Origin: Candidatus Jorgensenbacteria bacterium GW2011_GWB1_50_10
Lineage (GTDB): Bacteria; Patescibacteriota; Minisyncoccia; UBA6257; GWB1-50-10
Reading direction: 5' to 3'
Assembly (NCBI GenBank): GCA_001004105.1
Contig: LCQK01000002.1
Coordinates: 347-64,346 of the forward strand
DNA: 64,000 bases
Shown here piece by piece: positions 15,329-53,549 of this stretch (its first letter is position 1; every line of letters begins with the position of its first letter). The notes below the pieces were generated by a model. It was given only the letters and a program-made list of their open reading frames with translations, made no database searches and was not told where the DNA came from. A program made the translations under genes and the position numbers.

Positions 15329-15522
15329 ACCTTTTCTTCCCCACGCCAGACGGCTTCGGCTCGGGCGATTTCGTCCCGCTTCGGCGGGACTCAACCCTTC
15401 GCTCGCTTTAGATTCGGTGATATGATGCGTCATATCACCGAATAGCTCGCTCATCCACGACTGCGGTCGGGACTCCGCCGAAGAGTTGAGGGGTAAGTCT
15501 GGCTTTGGGGAAGAAAAGGTTT
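15325..15522. repeat. Composite ~200-nt palindromic element. Its 22-bp terminal inverted repeats are derived from the 26-nt family-B motif. It contains a perfect GTCCCGC-TTCG-GCGGGAC hairpin and a central 13-bp-stem hairpin (TTCGGTGATATGA-TGCG-TCATATCACCGAA).
   Basis: 5' arm AAACCTTTTCTTCCCCACGCCAGAC at 15327-15351 overlaps the secY stop. Its reverse complement lies at 15497-15522. Confidence 0.6.
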
Positions 15523-17472: not shown

Positions 17473-17496
17473 GTCAGTATGACATGTCATACTGAC
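17473..17496. promoter_or_regulatory. Perfect 24-nt palindrome GTCAGTATGACATGTCATACTGAC, 2 nt from the 3' end of the TrpR-like gene
   Basis: Perfect dyad, seen directly in the sequence. Confidence 0.5.
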
Positions 17497-17498
17497 TA

Positions 17499-17951
17499 TC
17501 ACAACGAAGGGTGCAGGTAGACTTTCCCGTACTTGGTGCGTCGGTATCTTCGATAGGGTTTCTTTTTGGAAGGGTGGCGGCTCCATACTTTCTTTTTCCG
17601 CTCTGTTTTACCTCGTTCCCGGTAGCTCTTGTAATTCCTTTCTTTGATAGCTTTTCTTATGCTATTTATGGTTTGCCGGGAAATTAGGAGTCCTCTTGAG
17701 ATTTGCTGCGGCCTCTTCCCTGAATTTACAAATTCTGCCACCGCGGCGCGCATGACTATATTGCGGCGCTCATTGGCGGTGACGAGTGTTTCCAAAAATT
17801 TTCCGGATTTGGTTATTCTGTCCCAGCAAGCTTTCTCCCAATCTTTACGTGAAGAATATTCACTTCTCGGCGGCAATAAGAACGAACCCGCGCCCATATT
17901 GTTGATTTTAGCCATAAACAAGTTAAGTTTAACATATTTAATGTATGACAT
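17499..17951 (-). CDS. TrpR/YerC/YecD-like helix-turn-helix protein
   Basis: The block ANERRNIVMRAAVAEFV..GKRPQQISRGLLISRQTINSIRKAI fits the TrpR-like HTH pattern. The start codon is the centre of a palindrome. Confidence 0.5.
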   Translation of the reverse strand: MSYIKYVKLNLFMAKINNMGAGSFLLPPRSEYSSRKDWEKACWDRITKSGKFLETLVTANERRNIVMRAAVAEFVNSGKRPQQISRGLLISRQTINSIRKAIKERNYKSYRERGKTERKKKVWSRHPSKKKPYRRYRRTKYGKVYLHPSL

Positions 17952-17958
17952 GTCATAC
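17943..17958. promoter_or_regulatory. Perfect 16-nt palindrome GTATGACATGTCATAC overlapping the start codon of the TrpR-like gene
   Basis: Same core as the 17473-17496 palindrome. Confidence 0.5.
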
Positions 17959-18796: not shown

Positions 18797-18824
18797 ATTC
18801 GCCAATTCGCGCGAATTGGCGAAT
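18797..18824. repeat. Perfect 28-nt palindrome ATTCGCCAATTCGC|GCGAATTGGCGAAT
   Basis: Seen directly. Its core TTCGCGCGAA is shared with the palindrome at 42696-42731. Confidence 0.5.
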
Positions 18825-22815: not shown

Positions 22816-22882
22816 AAGATCATCTAGTTCTTGGCAGTCAACGGCTGCGTGAGCAATCACGCAGCCGTTTCTCATTTTTCTA

Positions 22883-26160: not shown

Positions 26161-27201
26161 ATGGATAATCTGCTTATCATAGCCGTATTTGTCCTTGCTG
26201 CCGCCGTAGCAGCGCTCTTATGGTTTATTTTCAAGCGTGGTGGCGCCGGCGGCGACAATCAGTCGATGCTAATGCTTCAGCAGCAATTAAATAACCTCAA
26301 CCGCACTATTGATTCCAAAATCGGCGAATCAACGAAAGCGATGCAGCGGCAGTTCGGCGAGAGCGCGAAAATCATCCGCGACGTGACGGAGCGCCTGACG
26401 CGGCTCGATGAAACGAACAAACAGGTGGTGAATTTCGCCGACCAGCTGAAATCCCTGCAGGATATCCTGAAAAATCCGAAACAGCGCGGGGTTTTGGGAG
26501 AGTATTATCTGGAGACGGTTTTGAAAAACGTGATGCCGCCGGGCACTTACCAGATGCAGTACGAGTTCAAGGACGGCACAATCGTGGATGCGGTGGTTTT
26601 CGTCAAAGAAAAAATCATTCCAATTGATTCCAAGTTCAGCTTGGAAAATTACAATCGTCTCATTGCTACTCGCGATGACGCCGAGAAAAAGCGGTTGGAA
26701 GAGGCGTTTCGGAGCGATTTGAAAACCAGGATTGACGAGACTTCAAAATACATCAAGCCGGGGGAGAACACGATGGATTTCGCTTTCATGTTCATTCCGG
26801 CCGAGGCCGTTTATTACGATTTACTCATCAACAAAGTCGGTTCGGTTGAGGCGCGGGATTTGATTGAATACGCCATAGTGGATAAAAAAGTGATTGTGGT
26901 CTCGCCGACCTCGTTTCTCGCGTATCTTCAAACCGTGCTTCAGGGTTTGAAAGCGCTCCAGATTGAAGAGTCGGCTAAGGAAATCAGAAAAAGAGTGGAA
27001 GAGTTGGGCCGGCACTTGGGCAGTTACGAAACCTACATGAAGAAATTGGGGACGCACTTGGGCACCACGGTTAATATGTATAACAGCGCTTCCAAAGAAC
27101 TCGGCAAAATTGACAAGGACGTTTTGCGCATCAGCGGTCGGGCCGCCGGTATTGAACCAATAAGCATTGATGGACCGAGAAGCGCAGACGAAACGGAATA
27201 A
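26161..27201 (+). CDS. rmuC: DNA recombination protein RmuC
   Basis: N-terminal TM, coiled coil, and the conserved RmuC C-terminal block DFAFMFIPAEAVY. Confidence 0.82.
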   Translation: MDNLLIIAVFVLAAAVAALLWFIFKRGGAGGDNQSMLMLQQQLNNLNRTIDSKIGESTKAMQRQFGESAKIIRDVTERLTRLDETNKQVVNFADQLKSLQDILKNPKQRGVLGEYYLETVLKNVMPPGTYQMQYEFKDGTIVDAVVFVKEKIIPIDSKFSLENYNRLIATRDDAEKKRLEEAFRSDLKTRIDETSKYIKPGENTMDFAFMFIPAEAVYYDLLINKVGSVEARDLIEYAIVDKKVIVVSPTSFLAYLQTVLQGLKALQIEESAKEIRKRVEELGRHLGSYETYMKKLGTHLGTTVNMYNSASKELGKIDKDVLRISGRAAGIEPISIDGPRSADETE

Positions 27202-27922
27202 GTTGCTGGAAAAGAAATGGCGGAAGTTTTTGCGCCTCCGGCCGGTTTTTTCGTTCATTCCTTTTCTGGATTTCGTGATTGTTTCGGGTTCTTTAGCCAC
27301 CGGTAACGTTCACGAGAATTCGGATTTTGACGTAATTGTGGGCGCGCGAAAAGGTAAGATTTTCACGGTGCGGGCTTTCTGCGTTTTCGTTTTCGGGATT
27401 TTAGGCCTGCGGCGGCGGGGGATAGACCACAAAGCAGCGTCCAGCGATAAAGTTTGTTTCAATCACTTCGTGACACCGAAGGCCTATCGGCTTTCGCCGC
27501 CCTACAACGATTACTGGGTGAAGCTTTACCAGAATCTCGTGCCGGTTTATGGCAGAGAAAAGGCGGTAAGGGATTTTTTCCGGGCTAACGATTGGGCACT
27601 GCCTGCCGGCAGGCAGGGGCCACGCGAGACAATTTTCAGCGAAAAGTACTGGCAGAGCACAAACCCCAATCCTGCAGGTGGTATACATATGTATACCACC
27701 TGGATTTTAAAGACTTTCTTTGAGTTTGTTTTGCAGGGCTGGATCTTGGGCCGGGTTTTTGAAAAGTTCGTGAAAATCATAGAGCTCCATTACATCAAAA
27801 AGGGAATCAAGAACGGCGCTTTGGGTTTCAAGCCGCGCGTCCGCTACGGCGACGACGAATTGGAATTTCACCCCGACACCGCCCGGATTGAGGAGATGCT
27901 CAAAGAGGACTTGCGTTTTTAG
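27167..27922 (+). CDS. Nucleotidyltransferase-domain protein (Pol-beta-like NTase fold)
   Basis: Motif GSLATG(N5)SDFDVIV followed by a downstream acidic residue; 35-nt overlap with rmuC. Confidence 0.55.
   Translation: MMDREAQTKRNKLLEKKWRKFLRLRPVFSFIPFLDFVIVSGSLATGNVHENSDFDVIVGARKGKIFTVRAFCVFVFGILGLRRRGIDHKAASSDKVCFNHFVTPKAYRLSPPYNDYWVKLYQNLVPVYGREKAVRDFFRANDWALPAGRQGPRETIFSEKYWQSTNPNPAGGIHMYTTWILKTFFEFVLQGWILGRVFEKFVKIIELHYIKKGIKNGALGFKPRVRYGDDELEFHPDTARIEEMLKEDLRF
27674..27701. repeat. Perfect 28-nt palindrome CAGGTGGTATACAT|ATGTATACCACCTG (family C) inside the NTase CDS
   Basis: Core GGTGGTATACATATGTATACCACC is identical to the copy at 40495-40518. Confidence 0.7.
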
Positions 27923-28000
27923 GAATGCCGTGATACAATGCTATTGGTGATGTGTTAATTCCCTTGGCGATCACATCGACAAAGGAATTACCCCAATTCC

Positions 28001-28035
28001 ACAAGCCGCCGCAAGGCGGCTTGTGGTTTTTGCTT
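28001..28035 (+). terminator. Rho-independent terminator CCACAAGCCGCC-GCAA-GGCGGCTTGTGG followed by TTTTT
   Basis: 12-bp stem followed by a T-run. Confidence 0.6.
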
Positions 28036-28082
28036 TTAAAAAGCCCTTATTTTATGCTTATTTTGAGGTGATTGGACTGCTT

Positions 28083-28148
28083 GAGCGGCCGCGGATTCGA
28101 GCACTCACCAAGTAATAAAAAAATTGGAGGTCACCGCCGCGGTCGCTC
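28083..28148 (+). promoter_or_regulatory. secA leader stem: GAGCGGCCGCGG (28083-28094) pairs with CCGCGGTCGCTC (28137-28148), enclosing GGAGG and abutting the secA ATG
   Basis: 12-bp stem with one G-U pair; the Shine-Dalgarno sequence at 28118-28122 lies inside the loop. Confidence 0.4.
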
Positions 28149-30668
28149 ATGCGGTCTAATTTTTTGGGATTTTTATTCAAGGACCCGACAAGCCGGCTGA
28201 AGGATGCCGTCCGGCTTATTAACGCCGAAGAGCCGAAAGTGGAAAAATTGAGCGACGAGGAACTGAAATCGGCTTCTTTGGATTTGAGGAAAAAAATATC
28301 TACTGGAGATTCAATAGAGAATAGCGGAGATACAATGGATAATCTTCTGCCGCAGGCATTTGCCTTGGTGCGGGAGGCGAGCCGCCGGACGCTTCGCCAG
28401 CGCCACTTTGACGTCCAGCTTATGGGAGGCATCGTGCTCCACGAAGGGAAAATCGCCGAGATGATGACCGGCGAGGGTAAGACGCTTGTGGCAACATTGC
28501 CGGTGTATCTGAACGCCATATCCGGCAAGGGCGTGCACGTTGTGACGGTGAATGACTATCTGGCCAAGCGCGACACCGTTTGGATGGGGCAGATTTACCA
28601 CGCCTTGGGACTCAAGATTTCCTGCATCGTTCACGACACCGCTTACCAGTACGACCCGGAATTTGAGGGCACCGAATTGGACAAGGAGCGCGATGCGGTC
28701 GCGAGCTTCAAAGTTTTGGAAAAATTCCTGCGGCCGATAAGCCGGCGGGAAGCCTACCAAGCGGACATCACTTACGGCACGAACCACGAGTTCGGTTTTG
28801 ACTATCTGCGGGACAATCTAGTTTTGCGCCTCGCCGACAAAGTTCAAAAGGAACACAACTACGCGATTATCGACGAGGTGGACAGCATTTTGATAGACGA
28901 GGCGCGGACGCCGCTTATAATTTCGGCGCCCGACGTTGAGTCAAGCGGCTATTACCGGACGTTCGCGAAACTCGTTGAACGTTTGAATCAGGAAGACGAC
29001 TATGTCGTTGACGAAAAATTGAGAGTCGTAAACATCACCGATGCGGGTCTCGATAAGGTTGAAAAAATTCTCTCCATTCAAAACATCTTCGGGCCGGAGA
29101 ATGTGCGGCTGGTCCATTTTTTGCAGGAGAGCTTGCGGGCCAAGGCGCTTTTCAAGCGCGACAAGGATTATGTCGTCAAAAACGGCGAGGTGATAATTGT
29201 TGACGAGTTCACCGGCCGGATGCTTTTGGGAAGGCGCTATTCGGGCGGTTTGCATCAGGCGATTGAAGCGAAGGAGGGCGTCTCCGTGCAGGAAGAGAAC
29301 CGCACTTACGCCCAGATTACGATTCAAAATTATTTCCGGCTCTACAAGAAAATCGCCGGCATGACCGGTACCGCTTCCACGAGTGCCGAAGAATTCCACA
29401 AGGTTTACAATCTGGATGCGGTGACGGTTCCGACGAATAAACCGCTCGTTCGGCAGGATTTGTCGGATGCCGTTTATAAGGATAAAGACGGGAAATTCAA
29501 AGCGGTCGCGGAAGAAGTGAAGCGCCGGCACCTGCGTGGCCAGCCCGTGCTTTTGGGCACCGCTTCCATTAGCCACAACGAGTTGCTCTCGGAGTATTTG
29601 AAGCGCGTGGGCGTTCCGCACGAGGTTTTGAACGCCAAGAACAACGAGCGGGAAGGCGAGATTATCGCCCAGGGCGGCCGGGCCGGAGCGGTCACGGTCG
29701 CGACCAACATCGCCGGCCGGGGCGTGGACATTGTTTTAGGCGGTAATCCGCCCAATCCCGAAGAAGCGCAAAAAGTTAAGGAACTTGGCGGTTTGCACGT
29801 CGTCGGTACCGAACGGCATGAAGCGAGGAGAATTGACAACCAGCTTCGTGGCCGGAGCGGCCGGCAAGGCGACCCCGGCTCCACGCAATTCTTTTTGTCG
29901 CTGGAGGACGACCTGCTCCGCATTTTCGGCGGCGACAGAATCAAAAGTTTGATGGAAACTTTGAATTTCCCGGAAGACATGCCCATTGAGTCAAAAATGG
30001 TTTCCCGGTCGGTGAACCAAGCCCAGGCCCGCGTTGAGGGCGCGAACTTGGACATCCGGCGGCATCTTTTGGATTTTGATGACGTATTGAACAAACAGCG
30101 AATCGCCGTTTACGGGAAACGGGCGAAAATTCTGGAGGCGGGGGAGAAAGGCGAAATCCGGCCGTTCCTCATTGAAACGCTCGCGCACTTCGTGGATATC
30201 GCTGAGGAAGGGTTTAAAAAAGGAATAGAAGCGGGCGCGTTAAAGCGGGAAGACGAAGGGAAAATTGCCGAGTTGAGGCAAAAACTCAACACGATCCCTG
30301 AAAAAATTGAACCGGAGCGGGCGCAGGCGGTTGGTCAGCACATGACGCGGATTTTGGACAGTTTGTGGATTGGGCATTTGGAAAACCTGGAGGCGTTGCG
30401 GGACTCCGTTAATATCCGCGCTTACGGCCAGCACGAGCCATTGGTGGAATACCGGCGCGAGGCGCACAAGCTCTACACCGAGCTTAATCTCAATTTTGAG
30501 TCGCTTACGTTCAACACAATCTTTCAGTTTTTTGAAGGGGCCGCGAATAGATTTAAAATGGAAGCTAGACCGCAAGTGGCCAAGCCAGCCGACGTCAAAA
30601 AAATCGGCCGCAACGATCCCTGCTGGTGCGGTTCAGGCAAAAAGTTCAAAAAGTGCCATGGGGTGTGA
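28149..30668 (+). CDS. secA: Preprotein translocase ATPase SecA
   Basis: DEAD-like motor motifs and a C-terminal CWCGSGKKFKKCHG zinc finger. Confidence 0.95.
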   Translation: MRSNFLGFLFKDPTSRLKDAVRLINAEEPKVEKLSDEELKSASLDLRKKISTGDSIENSGDTMDNLLPQAFALVREASRRTLRQRHFDVQLMGGIVLHEGKIAEMMTGEGKTLVATLPVYLNAISGKGVHVVTVNDYLAKRDTVWMGQIYHALGLKISCIVHDTAYQYDPEFEGTELDKERDAVASFKVLEKFLRPISRREAYQADITYGTNHEFGFDYLRDNLVLRLADKVQKEHNYAIIDEVDSILIDEARTPLIISAPDVESSGYYRTFAKLVERLNQEDDYVVDEKLRVVNITDAGLDKVEKILSIQNIFGPENVRLVHFLQESLRAKALFKRDKDYVVKNGEVIIVDEFTGRMLLGRRYSGGLHQAIEAKEGVSVQEENRTYAQITIQNYFRLYKKIAGMTGTASTSAEEFHKVYNLDAVTVPTNKPLVRQDLSDAVYKDKDGKFKAVAEEVKRRHLRGQPVLLGTASISHNELLSEYLKRVGVPHEVLNAKNNEREGEIIAQGGRAGAVTVATNIAGRGVDIVLGGNPPNPEEAQKVKELGGLHVVGTERHEARRIDNQLRGRSGRQGDPGSTQFFLSLEDDLLRIFGGDRIKSLMETLNFPEDMPIESKMVSRSVNQAQARVEGANLDIRRHLLDFDDVLNKQRIAVYGKRAKILEAGEKGEIRPFLIETLAHFVDIAEEGFKKGIEAGALKREDEGKIAELRQKLNTIPEKIEPERAQAVGQHMTRILDSLWIGHLENLEALRDSVNIRAYGQHEPLVEYRREAHKLYTELNLNFESLTFNTIFQFFEGAANRFKMEARPQVAKPADVKKIGRNDPCWCGSGKKFKKCHGV

Positions 30669-30687
30669 GGATAGGAAAAATGTGAAT

Positions 30688-31431
30688 ATGGCTATAAAAT
30701 TGGATTTCAAAATAGAAGACGATTACTTGATAGTTCACACGCTATCAAATATGGGAAAGGGTAAATTTTCTTCAACGAAGTGTCAGAAAGATATTGTGGC
30801 ATTTCAGAATTACGCGTGGGGAAAATGCAAACCATGCTATAACTTACTTATTGGAAGGTTTCAAACAACAAAGATAGTGAAGGGGGGATTACAAAAAACA
30901 GCAGAACAATTGCCGAAATTCTTAAATGAATTAAAGAGGAGTGAGCAGTACAAAAAAATTCGTCAGCAGACAGAGGAATATTTTAGATTCTGTAAAAATC
31001 AATGGAATGGTAACTATCTTGTTGCAAGTAAAATAATAGAGGAATTGATGGGATTGAAATTGAATAAAAAAATTGCGGTATACATTACTCATCCCGGTTT
31101 GAAAAATGGAAGGTATGTAGGAAATAACACAATCGAGTGGGGGCACAATGAAGATTGGCCGAATTATGCAACTATATACTTATGGCACGAAATTCTTCAT
31201 TCATATATCGGATATTCAGAAAAAGGGCATGCGGTAATTGAATTGATAACGGATGAAGAATTGCGGACTCAATTAAACAGTGGTAAATACCCGCCATTTG
31301 TGGGACACAAGTATCTAAAATCGATTAAAAATAGATTATTGCCTCAATGGAGAAAATATCTTAATTCCGAAGAAAGAAACATTAGGAAATTTATAAAAGA
31401 AATTCCGCATGGGATAGTGAATAAAGCGTAA
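30688..31431 (+). CDS. Hypothetical protein with an HExxH motif (WHEILHSY...E); AT-rich
   Basis: The listed ORF 30370..31431 has a 5' part in an alternative frame over secA. The credible start is ATG 30688. About 35% GC. Confidence 0.45.
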   Translation: MAIKLDFKIEDDYLIVHTLSNMGKGKFSSTKCQKDIVAFQNYAWGKCKPCYNLLIGRFQTTKIVKGGLQKTAEQLPKFLNELKRSEQYKKIRQQTEEYFRFCKNQWNGNYLVASKIIEELMGLKLNKKIAVYITHPGLKNGRYVGNNTIEWGHNEDWPNYATIYLWHEILHSYIGYSEKGHAVIELITDEELRTQLNSGKYPPFVGHKYLKSIKNRLLPQWRKYLNSEERNIRKFIKEIPHGIVNKA

Positions 31432-31465
31432 AAGCGTCATAGGAAATAAGATATCCACAGCGCTA

Positions 31466-31495
31466 TTGACAACAAGTTTATCTAAAGATAAACTT
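31466..31495 (+). promoter_or_regulatory. TTGACA -35 element plus a perfect 22-nt palindrome AAGTTTATCT-AA-AGATAAACTT upstream of the Phd-like antitoxin
   Basis: Palindrome at 31474-31495, immediately upstream of the 31502 start. Confidence 0.5.
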
Positions 31496-31501
31496 TAAAA
31501 T

Positions 31502-31741
31502 ATGAAAAATAATATTGTCGGTCTGAAAGAGCTCCGAGAAAATATAGAGAACTACATCGCCCAGGTTAAAAAGGGCAAATCCTTTATTGTAGTGCGCCGC
31601 TCAAAACCGGTGCTTAAAGTTTCTTCCCCTGACGACGAGGGGCTTTGGGAAACCGTTGCTGATTTCACTAAGATAAACAAAAACGGAGTCGCCGCCAGAG
31701 ATGTCTTAAAAGAACTCCGCAAACTGAATGCCCGCTCTTAG
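31502..31741 (+). CDS. Phd/YefM-family type II antitoxin
   Basis: Pattern GLKELRENIENYI....GKSFIVVRRSKPV matches the Phd/YefM N-terminus; followed by an overlapping toxin-like ORF. Confidence 0.6.
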   Translation: MKNNIVGLKELRENIENYIAQVKKGKSFIVVRRSKPVLKVSSPDDEGLWETVADFTKINKNGVAARDVLKELRKLNARS

Positions 31742-31967
31742 AAAACTTCTTTCTAAATTTGACAAGGCGGAAAGAAAAATAATAGAAGCTTTGATTGAGA
31801 AAGTTATTTCTTTGAACTGGCGCGGTTTAGACGTTAAAAAGCTTAAGGGGTATCAAAACATTTTTCGCGTTCGCAAAGGCAAAATCAGGATTATTTTTTC
31901 CAGAAACGGCAAAAATATTTCTATCCTGTCCGTTGAACGTCGGCGAGAAGATACTTATAGGTTGTAA
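31728..31967 (+). CDS. RelE/ParE-family type II toxin
   Basis: Block KKLKG....FRVRKGKIRIIFS..G..I.IL.V.RR...Y; 14-nt overlap with the antitoxin. Confidence 0.6.
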   Translation: MPALRKLLSKFDKAERKIIEALIEKVISLNWRGLDVKKLKGYQNIFRVRKGKIRIIFSRNGKNISILSVERRREDTYRL

Positions 31968-31974
31968 AAGCGCC

Positions 31975-32688
31975 ATGGGACTAGCTGAGCTGGTTGGGTC
32001 TCGTGAGGATAAGAATATGGAAAAGAAAAGTATAAAACAAATATACGATGAATATGATATATCCCCGGCCCTACAGACGCATATGTATCGAGTCGCGGCG
32101 GTAGGTTCCATAATTTGCCGAAATTTTCAGGAGACAATGGAAACCGCCGAAATTATATCGGCTTGCCTGCTGCATGATATGGGCAACATAATAAAATTTA
32201 ATTTTGATGTTTTGCCGGAGCTAGTTGAGCCGCAAGGCAAAGATTACTGGTTGGGCATTCAGAAAAACTTTAAAGATCGGTATGGAGAAGATGAACATGA
32301 GGCCACATACGCGATTGCGAAAGAAATAGGTGTCACGGATAGAGTGTGTGATATAGTTCGGTCAATAGGATTTAGAAAGGCATGCGAGAGATATAAGAAC
32401 GACGATCTTGCCGAGAAAATTTGTACATACGCGGATGAAAGAACAGGGCCATTTGGCGTTTTATCTTTAAAAGGTAGAATCAGGGAGGGTCATAAGCGTT
32501 TCTTGGCATCCGGACGAAAACCAACCGGTGACGAAAGAACGTTTCAGACGCTTGTATCCTGTCTTGAGGGCATCGAAAAACAAATATTCAGCCATTTAGC
32601 TATCAAACCGGCGGATATCAACGACGGTTCGGTAAATTTAGAAATCGAAAATCTCAAAGAATTTGGCATCATTATAAAGTCCGCATGA
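31975..32688 (+). CDS. HD-domain phosphohydrolase
   Basis: LLHDMG HD motif. The start is set at the first Met after the toxin stop; the alternative start is 32017. Confidence 0.6.
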   Translation: MGLAELVGSREDKNMEKKSIKQIYDEYDISPALQTHMYRVAAVGSIICRNFQETMETAEIISACLLHDMGNIIKFNFDVLPELVEPQGKDYWLGIQKNFKDRYGEDEHEATYAIAKEIGVTDRVCDIVRSIGFRKACERYKNDDLAEKICTYADERTGPFGVLSLKGRIREGHKRFLASGRKPTGDERTFQTLVSCLEGIEKQIFSHLAIKPADINDGSVNLEIENLKEFGIIIKSA

Positions 32689-32733
32689 TATTAAGAAATG
32701 CGGGAGTGGGTATGAAATGCCATAGAAAATGCA

Positions 32734-33087
32734 ATGATTAAAAAGTGGCAAAATATTACCAGCAAGATTGAGCCGTGGTGGACGCTGGTTGGGGCGCCTG
32801 TTATACAAGAATTCATTTTCCGGTTTGTTCCGTATCAGATTTATGTTGCCTACGGCGGATTCTATACAGTTGGTATAGTAAGCTCTATCTTATTTGCCGC
32901 AATTCATTGGTATTTTGGGAGATGGTTTGTGTTGTACGCGTTAGTGGGGGGATTTATTGCCTGGTTTGTAATGGTAAGCTACGGGCTTTTATGGGCAGTG
33001 ATTCTTCACGTCGTTGCGAATGTCGTACTTTTGAGATTAGGGGTGTTACAGAAAGTTAAAGAAAAATCTCCGCAGAAAGGGAAGTAA
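32734..33087 (+). CDS. CPBP (CAAX protease/Abi) family intramembrane protein
   Basis: Conserved His blocks AAIHWY and ILHVVAN in TM helices. Confidence 0.55.
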   Translation: MIKKWQNITSKIEPWWTLVGAPVIQEFIFRFVPYQIYVAYGGFYTVGIVSSILFAAIHWYFGRWFVLYALVGGFIAWFVMVSYGLLWAVILHVVANVVLLRLGVLQKVKEKSPQKGK

Positions 33088-33102
33088 TTAAGCAAAAACG
33101 CC

Positions 33103-33375
33103 ATGGAAAATAATTTAGAGCAACGAATTCAAAAAATTGAGGAGAGGAATAGAGCAGTGGAAGCCGATAAGGGTTGGGAGACGAGCTGGACAAGGCGGGT
33201 TTTACTGACAATATTTACTTATTTAGCTATTGCTGTTTATCTCTGGGCGATAAGAATATCGTAGCCATGGCTGAATGCCATCGTGCCGGCGGTGGCTTTT
33301 ATGATTTCAACCTTAACAATGCCGTGGTTTAAGAAGGTTTGGCTGAAGTATGTTCGGCGGCAGAAGGAGATATAA
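33103..33375 (+). pseudogene. Small 2-TM protein ORF interrupted by an in-frame TAG at 33262-33264 (53-aa ORF plus a 36-codon in-frame continuation)
   Basis: MENNLEQRIQKIEERN...LAIAVYLWAIRIS-TAG-PWLNAIVPAVAFMISTLTMPWFKK...; the second hydrophobic helix continues in the same frame. Confidence 0.3.
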
Positions 33376-33439
33376 AATACAAACTTAGCTTGAATTGCCG
33401 GGCTCCATATTTTAGACTTGGGATGTCGGCTTTATTGAT

Positions 33440-33685
33440 ATGATTTCCAAAGAGGACAAGGCCAGTTCGGCGCATTCCAAGGGTTTTATCCGCCCCTTAG
33501 CTCTCGCTTGGGAGCTTGGTTACACCATCGCTATTCCGATTGTTGTTATGGCTTTGGGCGGGAGATTTCTGGATAGGTATTTCGGCACGGGTCCGATTTT
33601 ACTGCTCGTCGGCATCTTCGTTTCCGTTCTGCTTACGAGTTTCCTGGTTTACCGGAAAACGAAGAAAGTTTTGTCTCAATTTTAG
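33440..33685 (+). CDS. AtpZ/AtpI-like small membrane protein preceding the ATP synthase operon
   Basis: 81 aa, 2 TM, located directly upstream of atpB. Confidence 0.45.
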   Translation: MISKEDKASSAHSKGFIRPLALAWELGYTIAIPIVVMALGGRFLDRYFGTGPILLLVGIFVSVLLTSFLVYRKTKKVLSQF

Positions 33686-33737
33686 TATGCGAATAGCCTT
33701 AACGAATAGACACATGCGAATAAATTATGAATAAAAT

Positions 33738-34475
33738 ATGATTGAAGGTGTTCACATATCCCTGTCGGCCGAGAAAATACTGGATGTTTTCGGGTTTCCG
33801 CTCACCAACACCCTTTTAACGTCCTTTCTGGTCGTCATCTCATTAATGGTCGGTGCATACGTCTTGGGCAGAAAGATAAAGGCCATACCGGCCGGGATTC
33901 AAAATGCCGCGGAGTTCGTAATCGACGGCCTGCTTGGCTTTATGACGACCATCGCCGGCGACCGGAAAACGGCCGAAAAGTTTTTTCCGATCGTCGCCAC
34001 GATTTTTATTTTCGTCTTGTTCGCCAATTGGGCCGGCATTATCCCCGGCGTGGGGAGCATCGGTTTTTATGAAGATGGGAAAACTTTTGTGCCGTTTTTC
34101 CGGTCGGTCAATTCCGACCTGAACATGACGCTCGCCCTTGCCTTGATTGCCGTCACTTTAAGTCATTTTTTCGGCGTGGCCGGCCTCGGCGCCTTCAAGC
34201 ACGCCGGCAAGTTTTTCAACTTCAAAAACCCCATCGGCTTTTTCGTCGGCATCCTTGAATTTGTGAGCGAATTTGCTAAGATTATCTCGTTCTCTTTCCG
34301 GTTGTTCGGGAACGTTTTTGCCGGCGAGGTGCTGCTCGTAATCATCACGTTTCTCGTGCCAGTCATCGCCCCGGTGCCGTTCTACGGATTGGAGATTTTC
34401 GTGGGTTTCATTCAAGCGTTGATTTTTGCGGTGTTAACCATGATGTTTCTGGTGGTCGCAACGAAGCATCACTAA
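33738..34475 (+). CDS. atpB: ATP synthase F0 subunit a
   Basis: Conserved block R..GN..AGE. Confidence 0.94.
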   Translation: MIEGVHISLSAEKILDVFGFPLTNTLLTSFLVVISLMVGAYVLGRKIKAIPAGIQNAAEFVIDGLLGFMTTIAGDRKTAEKFFPIVATIFIFVLFANWAGIIPGVGSIGFYEDGKTFVPFFRSVNSDLNMTLALALIAVTLSHFFGVAGLGAFKHAGKFFNFKNPIGFFVGILEFVSEFAKIISFSFRLFGNVFAGEVLLVIITFLVPVIAPVPFYGLEIFVGFIQALIFAVLTMMFLVVATKHH

Positions 34476-34489
34476 ACAAATAAAAATAA

Positions 34490-34729
<240 letters not shown>

Positions 34730-34744
34730 AAGACGGAATGTCTA

Positions 34745-35251
34745 ATGTCGGAGCTATTCCACAATCTCGGCATAGATTGGAAGGTTCTCCTCGCACAGAT
34801 TGTTAATTTTGCGATTCTTCTTTTCGTCCTCAAGAAATTCGCCTACAAGCCCATTTTGAAGGTTTTAAACGATAGGCGGAAAAAGATAGAGGAAGCCATC
34901 GAGCGTTCGAAGGGCGTGGATGAAAAGATGGCTGAAATTGAGGCATTGAAAGAAAAGATTTTAGTTGAGGCAAGGCGGGAGTCGAGCGAGATTATAAAAA
35001 AAGCGGAGGAAGCCGCCGATAAGATTCAAGAGGACGCTTTAAAAGAGGCCTACGGCAAATCCGAAAAATTCATGGCCGAGTCCCTCAAAAAAGTCCAGGC
35101 CGAGCGCGAGAAAATATTCCAAGAGGTGAAAAACGAAACCGCGGGCCTTGTCTATGCGGCGGTTGAAAGAACAATCGGCGACTTGGCCGACGAGAAACTT
35201 AAGGCGAAAATGGTTGAGGATGCATTAAAATTTGTTATTTCAAAAAGATGA
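34745..35251 (+). CDS. atpF: ATP synthase F0 subunit b
   Basis: N-terminal TM plus a long charged helix. Confidence 0.88.
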   Translation: MSELFHNLGIDWKVLLAQIVNFAILLFVLKKFAYKPILKVLNDRRKKIEEAIERSKGVDEKMAEIEALKEKILVEARRESSEIIKKAEEAADKIQEDALKEAYGKSEKFMAESLKKVQAEREKIFQEVKNETAGLVYAAVERTIGDLADEKLKAKMVEDALKFVISKR

Positions 35252-35625
35252 CAAGGTATTCTTCAAAACAATACGCCCGCGCTTTATACGAGTTGGCCGC
35301 GGAATCTCCCAAAAAGATGCCCCTCATTCTCAAGGGTTTTGCGAACACGCTTCTTAAAAACAACGATTTGTCCAAAAGCGAGGAAATCATGAAGGAGTTT
35401 GAAAAAATTTACTACGAAGAGAGCGGAATACGGCGGGTTGAAGTGAGCGCCGCCGATGAAGGGGTTGGGAAATCTTTAAACCAAAAAATCAAGGGGGATA
35501 GCGTTTTCAAAAAAGACCTGGGGCTGATCGGCGGCGTCAAAATCAAAATCGGCGATGAAATGGTTGATAACACTCTTCACGGCAGACTTCGCCGTCTAAA
35601 AGAATCATTAATGCCCAATGGATAA
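35248..35625 (+). CDS. atpH: ATP synthase subunit delta (short)
   Basis: Position between atpF and atpA; OSCP-like sequence. Confidence 0.7.
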
Positions 35626-37153
35626 AGACAAGATTTTACAGGATTTAAAAAAGGATATTCTGGGAGTGAAGCGGGAACTTCGGGTGGAAAACGTCGGAGA
35701 GGTTTTTAAAGTTGGCGATGGCGTTGCGGAAATCAGGGGTTTATCGAACGTGATGTACTCGGAAATACTGGAGTTTGAAGCCGGCGACAAGAAAGTCCGG
35801 GGTTTGGCCTTGAATCTCCTTGAGGATTCCGTGAGCGCGATCGTGCTGGGTGATGCAACACTCATTAAAGAAGGTCAGGTTGTGAAATCAACCAACAAGC
35901 TGCTTTCCATTCCGGTCTCCGAGGGCCTTTTGGGGCGCGTGATAAATCCTTTGGGTGAACCCTTGGACGGCGGGCCGGCGATTAATTTTGAAAAAGCAAA
36001 GAACTATCCCATTGAGAAAATCGCCCCCGGCGTGATTACCAGGGAATCAGTGAACACGCCGATTCATACCGGCGTCAAAGCCATTGACGCCCTGATTCCC
36101 ATCGGCCGGGGCCAGCGGGAGCTCATTATCGGCGACCGGCAAATCGGGAAGACGGCACTTGTCGTTGACACCATCATCAATCAGGGAAAAGACGTTCGCC
36201 ACAAAACTCCCGTCTGCATTTATGTGGCGGTCGGCCAGAAGGAGTCAAAAGTTGCGAAACTCGTCCAGGATTTGAAAAAAGCGGGCGCCATGGATTACTC
36301 CATTGTGGTTTTGACCGGCGCTTCCTCGGGCGTGGCTTTGCAGTTTTTGGCCCCCTACGCCGGGTGCGCCATCGGCGAGTATTTCATGGACCAGGGAAAA
36401 GACGCGCTGGTAATCTACGATGATTTGACAAAGCACGCTTGGGCCTACCGGGAAATTTCCCTGCTTCTCAAACGTCCGCCGGGAAGAGAAGCTTACCCGG
36501 GCGATATTTTTTATCTTCATTCAAGACTTTTGGAGCGGGCGGCGAAAATGAGCAAAGCGCACGGCGGCGGCTCGCTTACGGCCCTACCCATAATAGAAAC
36601 CCAGCTCGCCGATATTTCGGCCTATATTCCCACCAACGTCATTTCGATCACCGACGGCCAGATTTATCTTGAGCCGGAACTTTTTTATCAGGGAGTGCGG
36701 CCGGCCTTGAACGTCGGCCTCTCGGTTTCCCGCGTTGGTTCGGCGGCGCAGACCAAGGCGATGAAGAAAGTCGCCGGCCGGTTAAGACTGGAACTGGCCC
36801 AGTATCGCGAACTGGCCGCTTTCGTTCAATTCGGCCAGGATTTGGACGAGGCCACCAAGCGTCAGATAGAACGGGGACGGCGGCTTACCGAGCTCTTGAA
36901 ACAGCCGCAATATCAGCCGATGCCTTTCGAGAACCAGGTCGCTTCGCTATATGCTGCCGTGAACGGTTTCTTGGACGGCGTAGCGGTGGAGGAAATTCGG
37001 GATTTTGAAAAGGGGTTCCTGAAATTCCTGCATGAGCGGCACAGCGGCATTTTGGACAAAATCCGGGAGACGGCCGACCTTGCGGACGGTCTTGAAGAAA
37101 AATTGAAATCCGCGGCGGAAGATTTCAGCCGGAATTATTTCGGAAAAATCTAA
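35618..37153 (+). CDS. atpA: ATP synthase F1 alpha
   Basis: Walker A motif GDRQIGKT; 511 aa. Confidence 0.96.
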
Positions 37154-37170
37154 ACTATATACATAAAAAT

Positions 37171-39472
<2,302 letters not shown>

Positions 39473-39476
39473 AGGC

Positions 39477-39722
39477 ATGAAAGTTTTCATCTACTCTTTG
39501 AAGAAGACAATTTATGAAGGCGAGGCCGACGTACTGTCCTTGCCCACCGCGGACGGGGAAATCAGCGTTCTAGAGAACCATGTCCCGCTCATCACCTCAA
39601 TAGCCAATGGAAAGATAAGAATAAGAAAGGGCAGCGGTTTTGACGAGACAAGCAGCGTTTATGAGGTCGGCGGCGGGTTTGCCGAGGTTAATCCCAAAGA
39701 AACAATCCTGCTTATTGATTGA
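39477..39722 (+). CDS. atpC: ATP synthase F1 epsilon (beta-sandwich domain only)
   Basis: 81 aa; N-terminal domain conserved. Confidence 0.82.
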   Translation: MKVFIYSLKKTIYEGEADVLSLPTADGEISVLENHVPLITSIANGKIRIRKGSGFDETSSVYEVGGGFAEVNPKETILLID

Positions 39723-39735
39723 TTTTGAAGGGAGT

Positions 39736-40224
39736 ATGGAAAATCAGAAGCTCCACGAAGTAGTGATCACCGCCATTATCGTGAAAGACGGTAAATATTT
39801 GATTACCCAGCGCTCCATGCAGGAGAAACGTTTCCCCGGCATGTGGACGGTGCCGGGCGGGAAGCTGGAAACGGACGACTACGTCCATCTGCCTAAAGAA
39901 ACCGAACATTATTGGTATAACGTGCTTGAGAAAGTATTGAGAAAAGAGGTTCGCGACGAAGTCGGATTGGAAATCAAGAACATTGAATACGTGACGAGTC
40001 TGGCGAGAGTTCACGAAGACAAAAATCCTTCGCTCGTAATCTCATGTATGGCCGATTACGAGTCAAGGGAAGTTGTTTTACAAGAAGGAGAAACGGATAG
40101 TTTCGCCTGGGTGAGCTTGGACGAAGCTAAAAATTATAAACTCATTGACGGAATTTATGATGAATTGGTGATGGTGGAAAATAAAAGAAAAGGCGTAAAA
40201 TCGGAGTGGCAGAGGTTTAAATAA
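39736..40224 (+). CDS. NUDIX hydrolase
   Basis: Nudix box GGKLE...LRKEVRDEVG. The internal ATG is taken as the start; the listed ORF begins inside atpC. Confidence 0.72.
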   Translation: MENQKLHEVVITAIIVKDGKYLITQRSMQEKRFPGMWTVPGGKLETDDYVHLPKETEHYWYNVLEKVLRKEVRDEVGLEIKNIEYVTSLARVHEDKNPSLVISCMADYESREVVLQEGETDSFAWVSLDEAKNYKLIDGIYDELVMVENKRKGVKSEWQRFK

Positions 40225-40226
40225 TC

Positions 40227-40451
40227 ATGGAACAGATCAAATTAGGCAAATACGAGCATTTCAAAGGAGATATAGTTGAGGTTTTTGGCAATGCGTTTCA
40301 CAGTGAAACTCTGGAGGGGTTTGTCATATACAAACACACCACCGGCAAGTGCGCCGGAGAACCTTATTATTGGGTCCGGCCGCTCAAAATGTTCACGGAA
40401 GAAGTGGAAGTAAACGGCCAAAAATTACCGCGGTTCCGTTACATCGGTTAA
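40227..40451 (+). CDS. DUF1653-like small protein
   Basis: Pattern YEHFKG..Y.V...A.HSET.E..V.Y.......WVRP...F. Confidence 0.5.
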   Translation: MEQIKLGKYEHFKGDIVEVFGNAFHSETLEGFVIYKHTTGKCAGEPYYWVRPLKMFTEEVEVNGQKLPRFRYIG

Positions 40452-40487
40452 TAACTAAAAATTCAGCAACTAAGAATTTAGTGACTA

Positions 40488-40528
40488 AAACCAAGGTGGT
40501 ATACATATGTATACCACCTTGGTTTTTT
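40488..40528 (+). terminator. Family-C palindrome AAACCAAGGTGGTATACA|TATGTATACCACCTTGGTTT followed by TTTTT; rho-independent terminator
   Basis: 18-bp stem followed by a T-run, after the DUF1653 gene. Confidence 0.6.
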
Positions 40529-40601
40529 GATTTTTACTGAAGTTTTTTAGGTTTTTAACCCAGCTTATTGTTACTGCTTTTCGTTTCCAGAGCCTTATTA
40601 G

Positions 40602-40970
40602 CTAGGAGTGCAGGGAACTCCAGCGGCCTCGGCCGTAGGAAGCGGGGTATTTTTGAAATTTATTCCTTTTAGGAAATTTTGAGTAAATTTTCTTTTTATA
40701 ATTGAGTTTTTTCAGGCCGCGCTTGATGAAAATCACGGTTTTTCTCGCGACGTCAGCTTTCTTGCTAGTTTCTCTCAAGCTTTCACCCTGCTTCAGGAAA
40801 TAAAGAGCAGCCAATCTTTTTTCCAAAATGACTTTTTCTTCTTCGGTTAGGAATTTTGAAAGAAAATCCGCCGGGCCGGATTTCTTGGATTTTTCAACCT
40901 CGGCCCAGAAAATTTTCCAAATCTCCTTTCTCAATCCCTCGCTAAAATTTTTCCTATTAGTTCTCGGCAT
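40602..40970 (-). CDS. TrpR/YerC/YecD-like helix-turn-helix protein
   Basis: Block EEEKVILEKRLAALYFLKQGESLRETSKKADVARKTV. The start is set at the internal Met; the listed ORF extends to 41024. Confidence 0.55.
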   Translation of the reverse strand: MPRTNRKNFSEGLRKEIWKIFWAEVEKSKKSGPADFLSKFLTEEEKVILEKRLAALYFLKQGESLRETSKKADVARKTVIFIKRGLKKLNYKKKIYSKFPKRNKFQKYPASYGRGRWSSLHS

Positions 40971-40972
40971 GG

Positions 40973-40996
40973 GTGGTATACTTAAGTATACCACCG
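40973..40996. promoter_or_regulatory. Family-C palindrome variant GGTGGTATACTTAAGTATACCACC, abutting the start of the TrpR-like gene
   Basis: Perfect 24-nt dyad, 2 nt from the ATG. Confidence 0.5.
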
Positions 40997-41148
40997 GGGA
41001 TTGAAATAGGAAGTGGCTGGGCATAAAATTGACAAAGGTATTAATATTTGACTGGGGGCAGACGCTTTACGGCGGTTTTCCCCAAGTATTCGGAGAAAAT
41101 TAAAAAAATACGGCCTCATTGTGATAGAGTTGTGATAAAATTAATACA

Positions 41149-42694: not shown

Positions 42695-42695
42695 T

Positions 42696-42731
42696 AACTA
42701 TTTTCTTATTCGCGCGAATAAGAAAATAGTT
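42696..42731. repeat. Perfect 36-nt palindrome AACTATTTTCTTATTCGC|GCGAATAAGAAAATAGTT immediately after the rluD stop
   Basis: Seen directly; a T-run follows 10 nt later. Confidence 0.5.
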
Positions 42732-42773
42732 AGAATTTGACTTTTTTATCCAAGAAATTATCATTACTCCATA

Positions 42774-43094: not shown

Positions 43095-43182
43095 ATTTCA
43101 TTAGATTCCGATCCCCACAGTCTTTTTTATTTCATTATATTTGGTATACGCTATAAACTTGAGGTATGATATAATAAGAAAA

Positions 43183-43848
43183 ATGGGGAAAAGGGGACCG
43201 AAGCCGAAAAGAAAGGTGGAAATCAGATGGTCGCCGGAATTTGCTTATGCCCTCGGGCTTTTGGCTACCGATGGGAATCTTTCTTCGGATGGCCGGCACC
43301 TTGATCTCACTTCTCAAGATAAAGAACAGCTTTTGAATTTTATGAAATGTCTTAGGATCAAGGTGGAAATTGGTTATAAAACTTCCGGGTTGAGCGGAGA
43401 AAGAACAGCCCGGGTTCAGTTCGGAGATGTCAATTTTTATAAATTTTTATTAAACATCGGTTTTTCACCCAACAAGTCGAAAACCATAGGGAGATTGGAT
43501 ATTCCGGATAAGTATTTCTTTGATTTTCTCCGAGGTCATTTTGACGGCGACGGTACTTTTTATTCTTATTGGGATCCGCGCTGGAGGTCGAGTTTTATGT
43601 TTTACACGGTTTTCATTTCGGCCAGCAAAGGTCATATTCAGTGGTTGAGAAAAAAAATTAATGAAACGTTGCCTATAAAGGGGCACATAACCAAGAGTAA
43701 AACCCAATCCACTTATAATCTTAAATACGCTAAAAGAGAATCATTAAAATTACTGAAAAAAGTTTATTATTCTCATAAAGTAATTTGCCTTTCTCGCAAA
43801 CGTTTGAAGATTGAAAAAGCTTTGGCTATAATGGGAGCGAAGCTATAA
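43183..43848 (+). CDS. LAGLIDADG homing endonuclease (double-motif, free-standing)
   Basis: Motifs LGLLATDGNLS and LRGHFDGDGTF; AT-rich; TATAAT about 10 nt upstream. The listed ORF starts at TTG 43141. Confidence 0.75.
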   Translation: MGKRGPKPKRKVEIRWSPEFAYALGLLATDGNLSSDGRHLDLTSQDKEQLLNFMKCLRIKVEIGYKTSGLSGERTARVQFGDVNFYKFLLNIGFSPNKSKTIGRLDIPDKYFFDFLRGHFDGDGTFYSYWDPRWRSSFMFYTVFISASKGHIQWLRKKINETLPIKGHITKSKTQSTYNLKYAKRESLKLLKKVYYSHKVICLSRKRLKIEKALAIMGAKL

Positions 43849-53512: not shown

Positions 53513-53517
53513 GCAAC

Positions 53518-53549
53518 TCCATTTATGGACGACCGTCCATAAATGGAGT
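53518..53549. terminator. Bidirectional terminator palindrome CTCCATTTATGGACG-AC-CGTCCATAAATGGAG
   Basis: Lies between convergent gatB and miaA. Confidence 0.55.

Follow-up and report, generated by a model that had tools for sequence, protein, structure and literature searches.

HisR, known as YerC in Bacillus subtilis, is a repressor of the TrpR family that reportedly recognizes 20-bp palindromes with the lineage-specific consensus cacTTTA-N6-TAAAgtg, and the operator of TrpR, TGTAcTnGTnnACnAgTACA, is also 20 bp long (PMC9413887). HisR and TrpR are often autoregulated, and binding by HisR of R. gnavus has been shown in vitro (PMC9413887). Here we describe a comparable arrangement in Candidatus Jorgensenbacteria, a lineage of the candidate phyla radiation (CPR, or Patescibacteria): a palindromic dyad of 24 bp occurs three times in a 64-kb stretch of DNA (the window, whose positions are used throughout; L-numbers denote loci fetched from other assemblies) and stands beside a gene for a TrpR/YerC-like protein. 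Judged from sequence comparison, the dyad is probably the cognate DNA operator of this protein, encoded at 40602-40970. The likeness to TrpR and HisR lies in what is probably a small all-helical helix-turn-helix (HTH) protein with the shared signature, in a 20-24 bp palindrome with a TnTA-N6-TAnA core that is lineage-specific, as in the HisR consensus, and in a site before the regulator's own gene, which would imply autoregulation. The differences are that no trp or his gene is found among the neighbours of the 51 dyad copies compared, which are heterogeneous housekeeping genes instead, that a second dyad sits at the 3' end of the regulator gene, that the copies are near-perfect 24-mers, some of them tips of terminators and some in-frame insertions in coding sequences, and that the CPR protein ends in an additional basic tail, which is conserved. 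A literature search returned no paper on the dyad in this context or on a TrpR/YerC regulon in CPR bacteria.

Scanning the window for GGTGGTATAC-N4-GTATACCACC finds copies at 27677-27700, 40495-40518 and 40972-40995, the central four nucleotides being ATAT in the first two and TTAA in the third. An earlier note on this DNA had reported three copies, two with an identical 24-nt core and the third differing in its central 4 nt; the scans bear this out, although the positions it gave for the first and last copies were shifted by one. A search allowing three mismatches returned the same three dyads, against 0.00 expected in 100 dinucleotide-preserving shuffles, which agrees with the note's view that the repeats exceed chance, and the looser pattern GTGGTNTN8ANACCAC with one mismatch again gave these three and no others in the window. 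The perfect palindromes around them differ in length (14+14 nt at 27675-27702, 20+20 at 40487-40526 and 12+12 at 40972-40995).

The predicted regulator is identical to UY26_C0003G0045, for which the public annotation gives 140 amino acids. An alignment of 12 orthologues begins with M[PS][RK]T[SN]RKNF at ATG 40970, which is therefore taken as the start of a protein of 122 amino acids, and the same alignment led to rejection of the upstream ATG at 41024. Thus the 140-aa version, longer by 18 codons in which the dyad is read as VVYLSIPP, is probably too long; comparable N-terminal artefacts are seen in the homologues P0020 (MVYLSA..) and P0023 (MVYCSIP..). With the ATG at 40970-40968 on the minus strand, the dyad is separated from the start by 1 nt and not by the 2 nt reported before. 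Direct support for placing the window protein in the TrpR family, as far as sequence goes, is weak but consistent: it scores 20 bits against Pfam Trp_repressor (PF01371), below the 27-bit cut-off, and aligns to E. coli TrpR by hhalign with E=1.2e-3, none of the NCBIfam models, YerC/YecD included, matches it, and a search of solved structures with the family profile gave no significant match. The family profile retrieves 385 cluster representatives, most of them with PF01371 and with the source names Trp family regulator or YerC, and the signature L-T-x-x-E...LEKRLA...G-x-S-x-R-E...T-I aligns to TrpR helices. The basic C-terminal tail, of GRGRW type, is conserved.

One argument for a regulator-operator pair comes from the position of the dyad across homologues. 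Ten orthologous regulator loci (39-84% identity) were examined, and in all ten a dyad precedes the ATG, either by 1 nt (window, L026, L036/L049, L039/L046, L047 and L048) or by 7 nt (L032, L041 and L042-L045/L050). In six lineages (window, L032, L039/L046, L041, L042 and L048) a second dyad lies just past the stop codon, with a spacing between the 5' and 3' dyads of 477 bp in the window, 404 in L039, 412 in L032, 426 in L041, 423 in L042 and 433 in L048. The copy at 40495-40518 is this 3' partner, which brackets the regulator gene, a relationship that the earlier note overlooked; in L032, as in the window, the dyad lies between convergent DUF1653 and TrpR-like genes. In the orthologues of L041 and L042, which are 39-41% identical, the outer GGTGGT...ACCACC is retained while the inner bases have drifted, and at L051 (33% identity) the inverted repeat, ~60 nt upstream, is of another kind (7-4-7).

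More distant homologues follow the same plan with other sequences. In ten contigs (L053-L062; 24-44% identity), nine of them non-redundant since L061 duplicates L057, each gene is flanked by its own dyad, upstream and again just past the stop (Table 1). The window itself holds a paralogue at 17499-17915 (E=5.5e-10 in an hmmsearch with the A3 profile; E=1.6e-4 for Pfam Trp_repressor), flanked by GTATGACATGTCATAC-type dyads at 17473-17496 and 17943-17958; its true start is likely ATG 17915, the listed ATG 17951 falling within the 5' dyad. Over the ten orthologous loci, the nine distant ones and the window paralogue, a dyad thus overlaps the ATG or precedes it by 1-90 nt. The ~12 lineage-specific dyads are palindromes of 16-26 bp that all fit TnTA-N6-TAnA, and HTH residues vary together with dyad sequence: three TCTAAC-type lineages have in common a His-containing recognition segment, D[VT]H[YR][SN]TIS (DVHYNTIS, DTHYSTIS and DVHRSTIS), and the corresponding segment of the GGTGGTATAC group is DVA[RK]KTVI. 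Because homologues are bracketed by lineage-specific TnTA-N6-TAnA dyads with which their HTH residues covary, we read the dyad as the regulator's cognate operator, which probably overlaps its promoter. The earlier suggestion that the 40972 dyad is a candidate operator now appears strongly supported by comparison, since a dyad stands at or near the start codon in every orthologue and distant homologue with flanking DNA.

The promoter context suggests how such an operator might act. A Shine-Dalgarno-like motif precedes only 7/67 window genes, and in many genes of the window a TATAAT-like box lies 6-9 nt before the start (e.g. upstream of 69, 19818, 21305, 50843, 57874 and 61951); few Shine-Dalgarno motifs together with boxes so close to starts suggest widespread leaderless or short-leader mRNAs. 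Both strands of the dyad carry TGGTATACT, which resembles an extended -10 motif. The TATACT within the dyads of L054, L056 and L057 stops 6 nt short of the ATG; L055 and L058 have a canonical TATAAT or TATAAA box downstream of the dyad, at 6-8 nt from the ATG. With -10-like elements within or beside the dyad, binding would block the promoter. Moreover, several dyads lie in divergent intergenic regions only 57-90 nt long (L010, L019, L026 and L036), so short that the dyad may serve both flanking genes. One may argue that the dyad is instead a portable extended -10 promoter that works in both directions and has no protein dedicated to binding it, as TGnTAnnnT occurs on both strands, the organism lacks Shine-Dalgarno motifs and places -10 boxes beside start codons, and those divergent regions leave no room for another promoter; in addition, the two window copies that are not at promoters read TATACA, their ATAT centre removing the final T of the -10 hexamer, and the regulator's copy reads TATACT. 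We consider this very unlikely, as it leaves the match between 5' and 3' dyads and their covariation with the protein across lineages unaccounted for, copies also occur between convergent genes and inside coding sequences, and L055 and L058 have a distinct canonical -10 box downstream of the dyad.

The 3' copy appears to combine the operator sequence with a terminator. It forms the tip of a 40-nt perfect palindrome at 40487-40526, with an A-run and a T-run flanking the hairpin between convergent genes, which makes it a plausible bidirectional intrinsic terminator. The predicted RNA folds at -28.2 kcal/mol on the plus strand and -28.7 on the minus strand (z -7.5 and -8.4), and the terminator scan recovers it with 18 pairs, 7 of them G-C, a 4-nt loop and the tail TTGATTTTTA; the copies at 40972 and 27677 both fail that scan. 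The earlier proposal that the 40495 copy acts as an intrinsic terminator after the DUF1653 gene is therefore supported by the 18-pair stem, the A/T runs and the scan, as far as sequence can indicate. Unrelated perfect palindromes also lie at gene ends at 15412-15443, 22840-22869, 27999-28026 and 53516-53549, and perfect-palindrome terminators appear to be usual in this genome. The 51 distinct dyad copies show a bimodal distribution of extra flanking pairs (0-2 in 40 copies and 4-9 in 11, formed by non-conserved complementary bases), and a T-run follows the dyad in 17/38 directions with an incoming gene versus 3/17 without; on both counts some dyads are probably tips of genuine terminators. Yet the likeness to intrinsic terminators, seen in the 40487-40526 stem-loop with its A/T runs and in the correctly oriented T-run of ~45% of gene-3'-end dyads, is partial, since the conserved 24-mer tip is common to sites that are not terminators and the U-tract is absent at 27677, at 40972 and at more than half of the 3'-end copies elsewhere.

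These hairpins raise the question of whether the dyad acts in RNA altogether, as a terminator, a 5' or 3' mRNA stabiliser or a processing site, either read in RNA by the basic-tailed TrpR-like protein or linked to that protein because flanking hairpins regulate the protein's own mRNA. A perfect palindrome alone cannot tell an RNA stem from the site of a dimer. The hairpins are stable (-15.6 to -28.7 kcal/mol, z -3.4 to -8.4), 11/51 copies are lengthened by non-conserved complementary flanks, T-runs are commoner where transcription of a gene would enter the dyad (in the proportions given above), compensated symmetric variants occur, almost all 3' copies are perfect and many are extended, and the protein has its conserved GRGRW-type basic tail. 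In contrast, asymmetric 5' copies that fold poorly nevertheless hold their position (L041, L042, L048, L053, L058 and L062), which favours recognition of the dyad as double-stranded DNA. A hairpin only 1 nt from the AUG would, if transcribed, prevent translation, over half of the dyads found at 3' ends of genes lack a U-tract, the conserved protein core appears to be a TrpR-type HTH, the dyads have the layout of TrpR/HisR operators, and an Rfam scan of the whole window found a tRNA alone, with no known RNA family at the dyads. Hence an RNA role is, in our judgement, unlikely.

The first copy differs from the other two in lying inside a gene. In the open reading frame (ORF) at 27170-27922 it encodes ...NPAGGIHMYTTWI..., then TGGATTTTAAAG; this nucleotidyltransferase-like gene sits between rmuC and secA and has 453 homologues at E<=1e-5. 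The earlier note had offered two explanations for this copy, an intragenic terminator or attenuator and a regulator-binding site within a gene. The first is not supported: the terminator scan does not recover the copy, the orthologous copy in L017 lacks the T-run, the reading frame is conserved on both sides, and the gene is followed by a terminator of its own at 27999-28026, so the intragenic dyad is not needed as one. The second fits better, the copy being base-perfect in two genomes, and may hold. In alignment A2, which comprises 32 nucleotidyltransferase-like proteins, the residues encoded by the dyad form an insertion within a variable loop; the insertion is intact in 7 (GGILKYTT, GGIHMYTT or GGTHMYTT), decayed in 3 and absent from the rest, including all outgroups; its occurrence is patchy inside one clade, and the L017 orthologue has it at the same alignment column. 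GGILKYTT also occurs in frame in PGK (L002 and L005, 74% identical), MurC (L005 and L021), MurD (L012) and a DUF4015 protein (L003). The dyad codons of PGK are identical at 8/8 positions versus 126/265 elsewhere in the gene (Fisher p=0.003), and those of the nucleotidyltransferase-like gene at 6/6 comparable positions versus 38/75 elsewhere (window vs L017, proteins 58% identical). All dyad codons being identical between genomes, the intragenic dyad DNA itself is under constraint.

Palindromes within genes are known from Rickettsia, whose palindromic elements are selfish DNA located in frame within protein-coding genes (reviewed in PMC10969869). The dyad resembles them in that one palindrome is found in frame in housekeeping proteins that are unrelated to one another, at sites on the surface or in loops that tolerate it, with a patchy distribution and decay in some lineages. 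Rickettsia palindromic elements are roughly 100-150 bp in size, whereas the dyad has 24 bp and coincides with the operator of a neighbouring family of regulators; it is also base-perfect across 26-42% protein divergence, which suggests function over pure selfishness. Another comparison is with repetitive extragenic palindromes (REPs) and their associated tyrosine transposases (RAYTs), which share with the dyad its short, dispersed, mostly extragenic palindromes, the flanking of a single-copy cognate gene and the presence of some terminators. In contrast, the flanked gene here encodes an HTH protein and not a Y1/HUH transposase, the dyads are perfect palindromes and so have no strand asymmetry, there are ~10 copies per genome and not hundreds, and orthologous sites are conserved.

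Could the dyad then be a selfish or mobile short palindrome of either kind, with the TrpR-like gene as its reader or mobilisation factor? The repeat stands on both sides of the cognate gene, as REPs do around RAYT genes, GGILKYTT-encoding insertions are found in frame in five unrelated proteins, presence, decay and absence are patchy in one nucleotidyltransferase-like clade, the central tetranucleotide is specific to the genome, and some copies are nested at the tips of longer palindromes. We nevertheless hold mobility to be distinctly unlikely as the explanation: the protein has neither a transposase nor an HUH domain and is a 122-aa HTH protein instead, copy number is low (<=10 exact per assembly), and the other lineage-specific dyads have no copies outside the bracket in 7-20 kb of flanking DNA. 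Mobile elements of the MITE type have terminal inverted repeats with target-site duplications and measure tens to hundreds of bp; the dyad has only 24 bp, and target-site duplications or direct repeats are not evident in its flanks by eye, no formal test having been run. In addition, orthologous positions are kept over deep divergence (mpg, pgk, DUF1653 and the nucleotidyltransferase-like gene), which points to long-term retention. The dyad upstream of mpg is held between the same two genes even though MPG is only 48% identical and the remaining spacer differs, which argues that it has long had a function and was not inserted recently.

When one genome per species was scanned for exact matches, the dyad was present in 40 stretches from 16 assemblies, nearly all Patescibacteria, with at most 10 exact copies per assembly, 2-10 in the better-sampled related assemblies, and a density of ~1 per 20-60 kb. 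The centre is usually T-NN-A and genome-specific: TATA in CAZMFA (11/11 copies), JAKALR (7/7) and DAIDAY, and TTAA or TCAA in CAZGRD, CAZUMB, JBBTQX and others. Several of the metagenome-assembled genomes that hold the dyad (L017 and other CAZ* assemblies) are labelled 'uncultured Candidatus Saccharibacteria', although their gene order is that of the window, secA of L017 has 74% nucleotide identity to it, and the nucleotidyltransferase-like protein and the regulator have 58-83% amino-acid identity. These labels are probably imprecise and, given the likeness of secA, conservation is claimed within a Jorgensenbacteria-related clade and not across phyla. The genes beside the 51 copies include mpg, NUDIX, dinB, glyA, tsaC, yceG, dnaX, tyrS, murD, miaA, gyrB and genes for Cys-rich Zn-ribbon proteins, at the borders of whose tandem arrays the dyad lies in 8 loci. 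A coherent metabolic or DNA-repair regulon, which mpg, dinB, NUDIX, RmuC and DprA near some copies might suggest, was set aside as no more than a lead, in view of the heterogeneity of the full list. Also rejected was a DNA uptake sequence, which has hundreds to thousands of copies per genome (~1 per kb), a density far above that of the dyad, which occurs three times in 64 kb and no more than 10 times per assembly as an exact copy. A phage origin was discarded as well, the sole match in 2.9 million viral contigs (L052 5070-5093, a T4-like phage contig) having the dyad arms around a non-palindromic centre, CTCA, between sliding-clamp-like and clamp-loader-like genes, and being probably unrelated.

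Perfect palindromes numbering ~10 per genome, of which some are kept base-perfect within genes and some adjoin the gene of the binder, recall parS and ParB, and the TrpR-like protein might accordingly have a structural role at chromosome-organisation sites resembling parS, matS or NBS. That role is exceedingly improbable, since the dyad has a fixed position relative to the start codon, paralogues in one genome have their own dyads (window; DAICAC and DAICAD), and the related contig L055 has canonical ParA and ParB.

Reading the dyad as a cognate operator leads to the following putative mechanism. A dimer of the regulator would bind the 24-bp dyad beside the start codon, where the dyad supplies -10-like hexamers (TGGTATACT), so that the bound regulator would block its own promoter and thereby cause autorepression. 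The 3' operator at 40495-40518 may strengthen repression, either through looping or as a barrier to incoming RNA polymerase, and, as the tip of the 40-nt palindrome, may double as a bidirectional terminator for the DUF1653 and regulator genes. In the lac system, the O1 and O2 auxiliary operators are ~400 bp apart and act by looping. As a functional analogy, the two operators here, 404-477 bp apart, would likewise stand one at the promoter and one downstream, with the difference that the downstream operator lies past the stop codon and is also a hairpin. Further copies would make up a small, partly conserved set of extra sites beside or inside heterogeneous housekeeping genes, and the 27677 copy would be one such site, an operator carried as an in-frame 8-codon insertion.

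Several points weigh against an operator. If TATACT is the -10 element, the leader after the 5' dyad is <=7-13 nt, and no conserved -35 element is seen. The genes beside the dyads have no common functional theme, and operators inserted in frame in essential genes are hard to rationalise as regulation. Moreover, near-perfect identity over 24 nt among copies is unusual for a regulon, symmetric compensated variants exist (e.g. GGTGGTCTATTTAAATAGACCACC and GGTGGTATCTTTAAAGATACCACC), and non-conserved complementary flanks extend the 11 copies mentioned above, all of which is easier to explain by selection for a hairpin or by a copying mechanism than by plain drift of an operator. Most dispersed copies were found by an exact-match search, which favours perfect ones; that they look perfect and the 5' copies imperfect is no more than a trend and partly an artefact of exact matching.

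Table 1. Dyads, associated genes and neighbouring features; positions are those of the window unless a locus is named.
Feature	Position	Strand	Remarks
Dyad copy 3	40972..40995		GGTGGTATAC-TTAA-GTATACCACC, 1 nt upstream of the TrpR/YerC-like ATG; proposed autoregulatory operator
TrpR/YerC-like helix-turn-helix protein, 122 aa	40602..40970	-	basic C-terminal tail ...YGRGRW; proposed dyad-binding partner
40-nt perfect palindrome	40487..40526		has dyad copy 2 (40495-40518) as its tip and separates the convergent DUF1653 and TrpR-like genes; 3' bracket, terminator-like hairpin
DUF1653 gene	40227..40451	+	Pfam PF07866, E=2.6e-21; transcript would end at the 40487-40526 hairpin
Dyad copy 1	27677..27700		centre ATAT; in-frame 8-codon insertion (GGIHMYTT) in nucleotidyltransferase-like protein
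Nucleotidyltransferase-like coding sequence	27170..27922	+	host of dyad copy 1; conserved CPR protein; weak NTP_transf_2 and Polbeta matches
Terminator hairpin of nucleotidyltransferase-like gene	27999..28026	+	12-pair stem, then TTTTTGCTTT
Second TrpR-like paralogue	17499..17915	-	different dyad on both sides
3' dyad of paralogue	17473..17496		GTCAGTATGACATGTCATACTGAC; 2 nt past its stop codon
5' dyad core of paralogue	17943..17958		GTATGACATGTCATAC; ~28 nt upstream of ATG 17915; outer bases unlike the 3' copy
L054 dyad			CACTATAG-N4-CTATAGTG
L055 dyad			CGCTCTAACTAGTTAGAGCG
L056, L057 and L061 dyad			TGGTATAGTATACTATACCA
L053 dyad			GTGTTTACTTAAGTAAACAC
L058 dyad			GGTCTAACGCGTTAGACC
L060 dyad			GCGCTCTAACGCGTTAGAGCGC
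L059 dyad			CAATAC-N6-GTATTG type
L062 dyad			ACTTCATTATATTAATATAATGAAGT
Cys-rich protein arrays	L004 60-6550; L023 104-4770; L019 2-3294; L009 641-2452		

Some further features were observed in the window and in related contigs. Two perfect palindromes in the window, 18797-18824 (28 nt) and 42695-42732 (38 nt), share the core ATTCGCGCGAAT and differ in their complementary flanks, a layout of conserved tip and variable stem that is the same as in the TrpR-like dyad; one follows a 204-aa ORF without a Pfam match and the other lies between rluA and rplS. In L054 (10001-15229) a TrpR-like gene is directly upstream of grpE-dnaK-dnaJ, the usual place of hrcA, with its 3' dyad 164 nt before grpE, and L059 (5659-11980) has hrcA-grpE-dnaK plus a TrpR-like gene near dnaJ. 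The order dinB, TrpR-like gene and PD-(D/E)XK (Cas4-like) nuclease is kept in three contigs (L056 1065-3524, L057 8819-11235 and L061 4837-7045), and in L040 (6872-8000) a GGTGGTATAC dyad lies 79 nt upstream of dinB; together, these arrangements hint at a link to DNA damage. The Cys-rich proteins, of ~590 aa, have Zn-ribbon-like CxxC motifs at both ends, form tandem arrays of 3-4 paralogues and match no Pfam or NCBIfam model. The window also contains a Phd/ParE-like toxin-antitoxin pair (31502-31967) and a free-standing LAGLIDADG-like ORF (43141-43848), and L028 (3335-6646) encodes a GyrB with an intein.

The probable pairing of dyad and regulator, one of the small regulators that recur in CPR bacteria, in about a dozen of their lineages provides testable protein-DNA pairs with natural specificity variants and a simple rule for predicting sites, which is to inspect both sides of the regulator gene; it also likely corrects a mis-annotated start codon of the regulator. 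Transcriptional regulation in CPR bacteria, which have few regulators and cannot be grown alone, is almost wholly unknown. A wider view, speculative and rather unlikely as it stands, is that TrpR/YerC-like proteins of the CPR and their perfect dyads form an undescribed 'operator-terminator' punctuation system of leaderless genomes without Shine-Dalgarno motifs, organized as self-bracketed cassettes in which the dyad would serve as promoter core, as protein-gated roadblock or insulator and as hairpin terminator, and which would spread, including in frame into pgk, murC and murD, where selection would keep the dyad base-perfect. If dyads do join promoter, operator and terminator in this way, they would show an economy of control signals in very compact genomes; the base-perfect copies carried in frame by essential enzymes lead in that direction too and would blur the boundary between a regulatory site and a selfish repeat.

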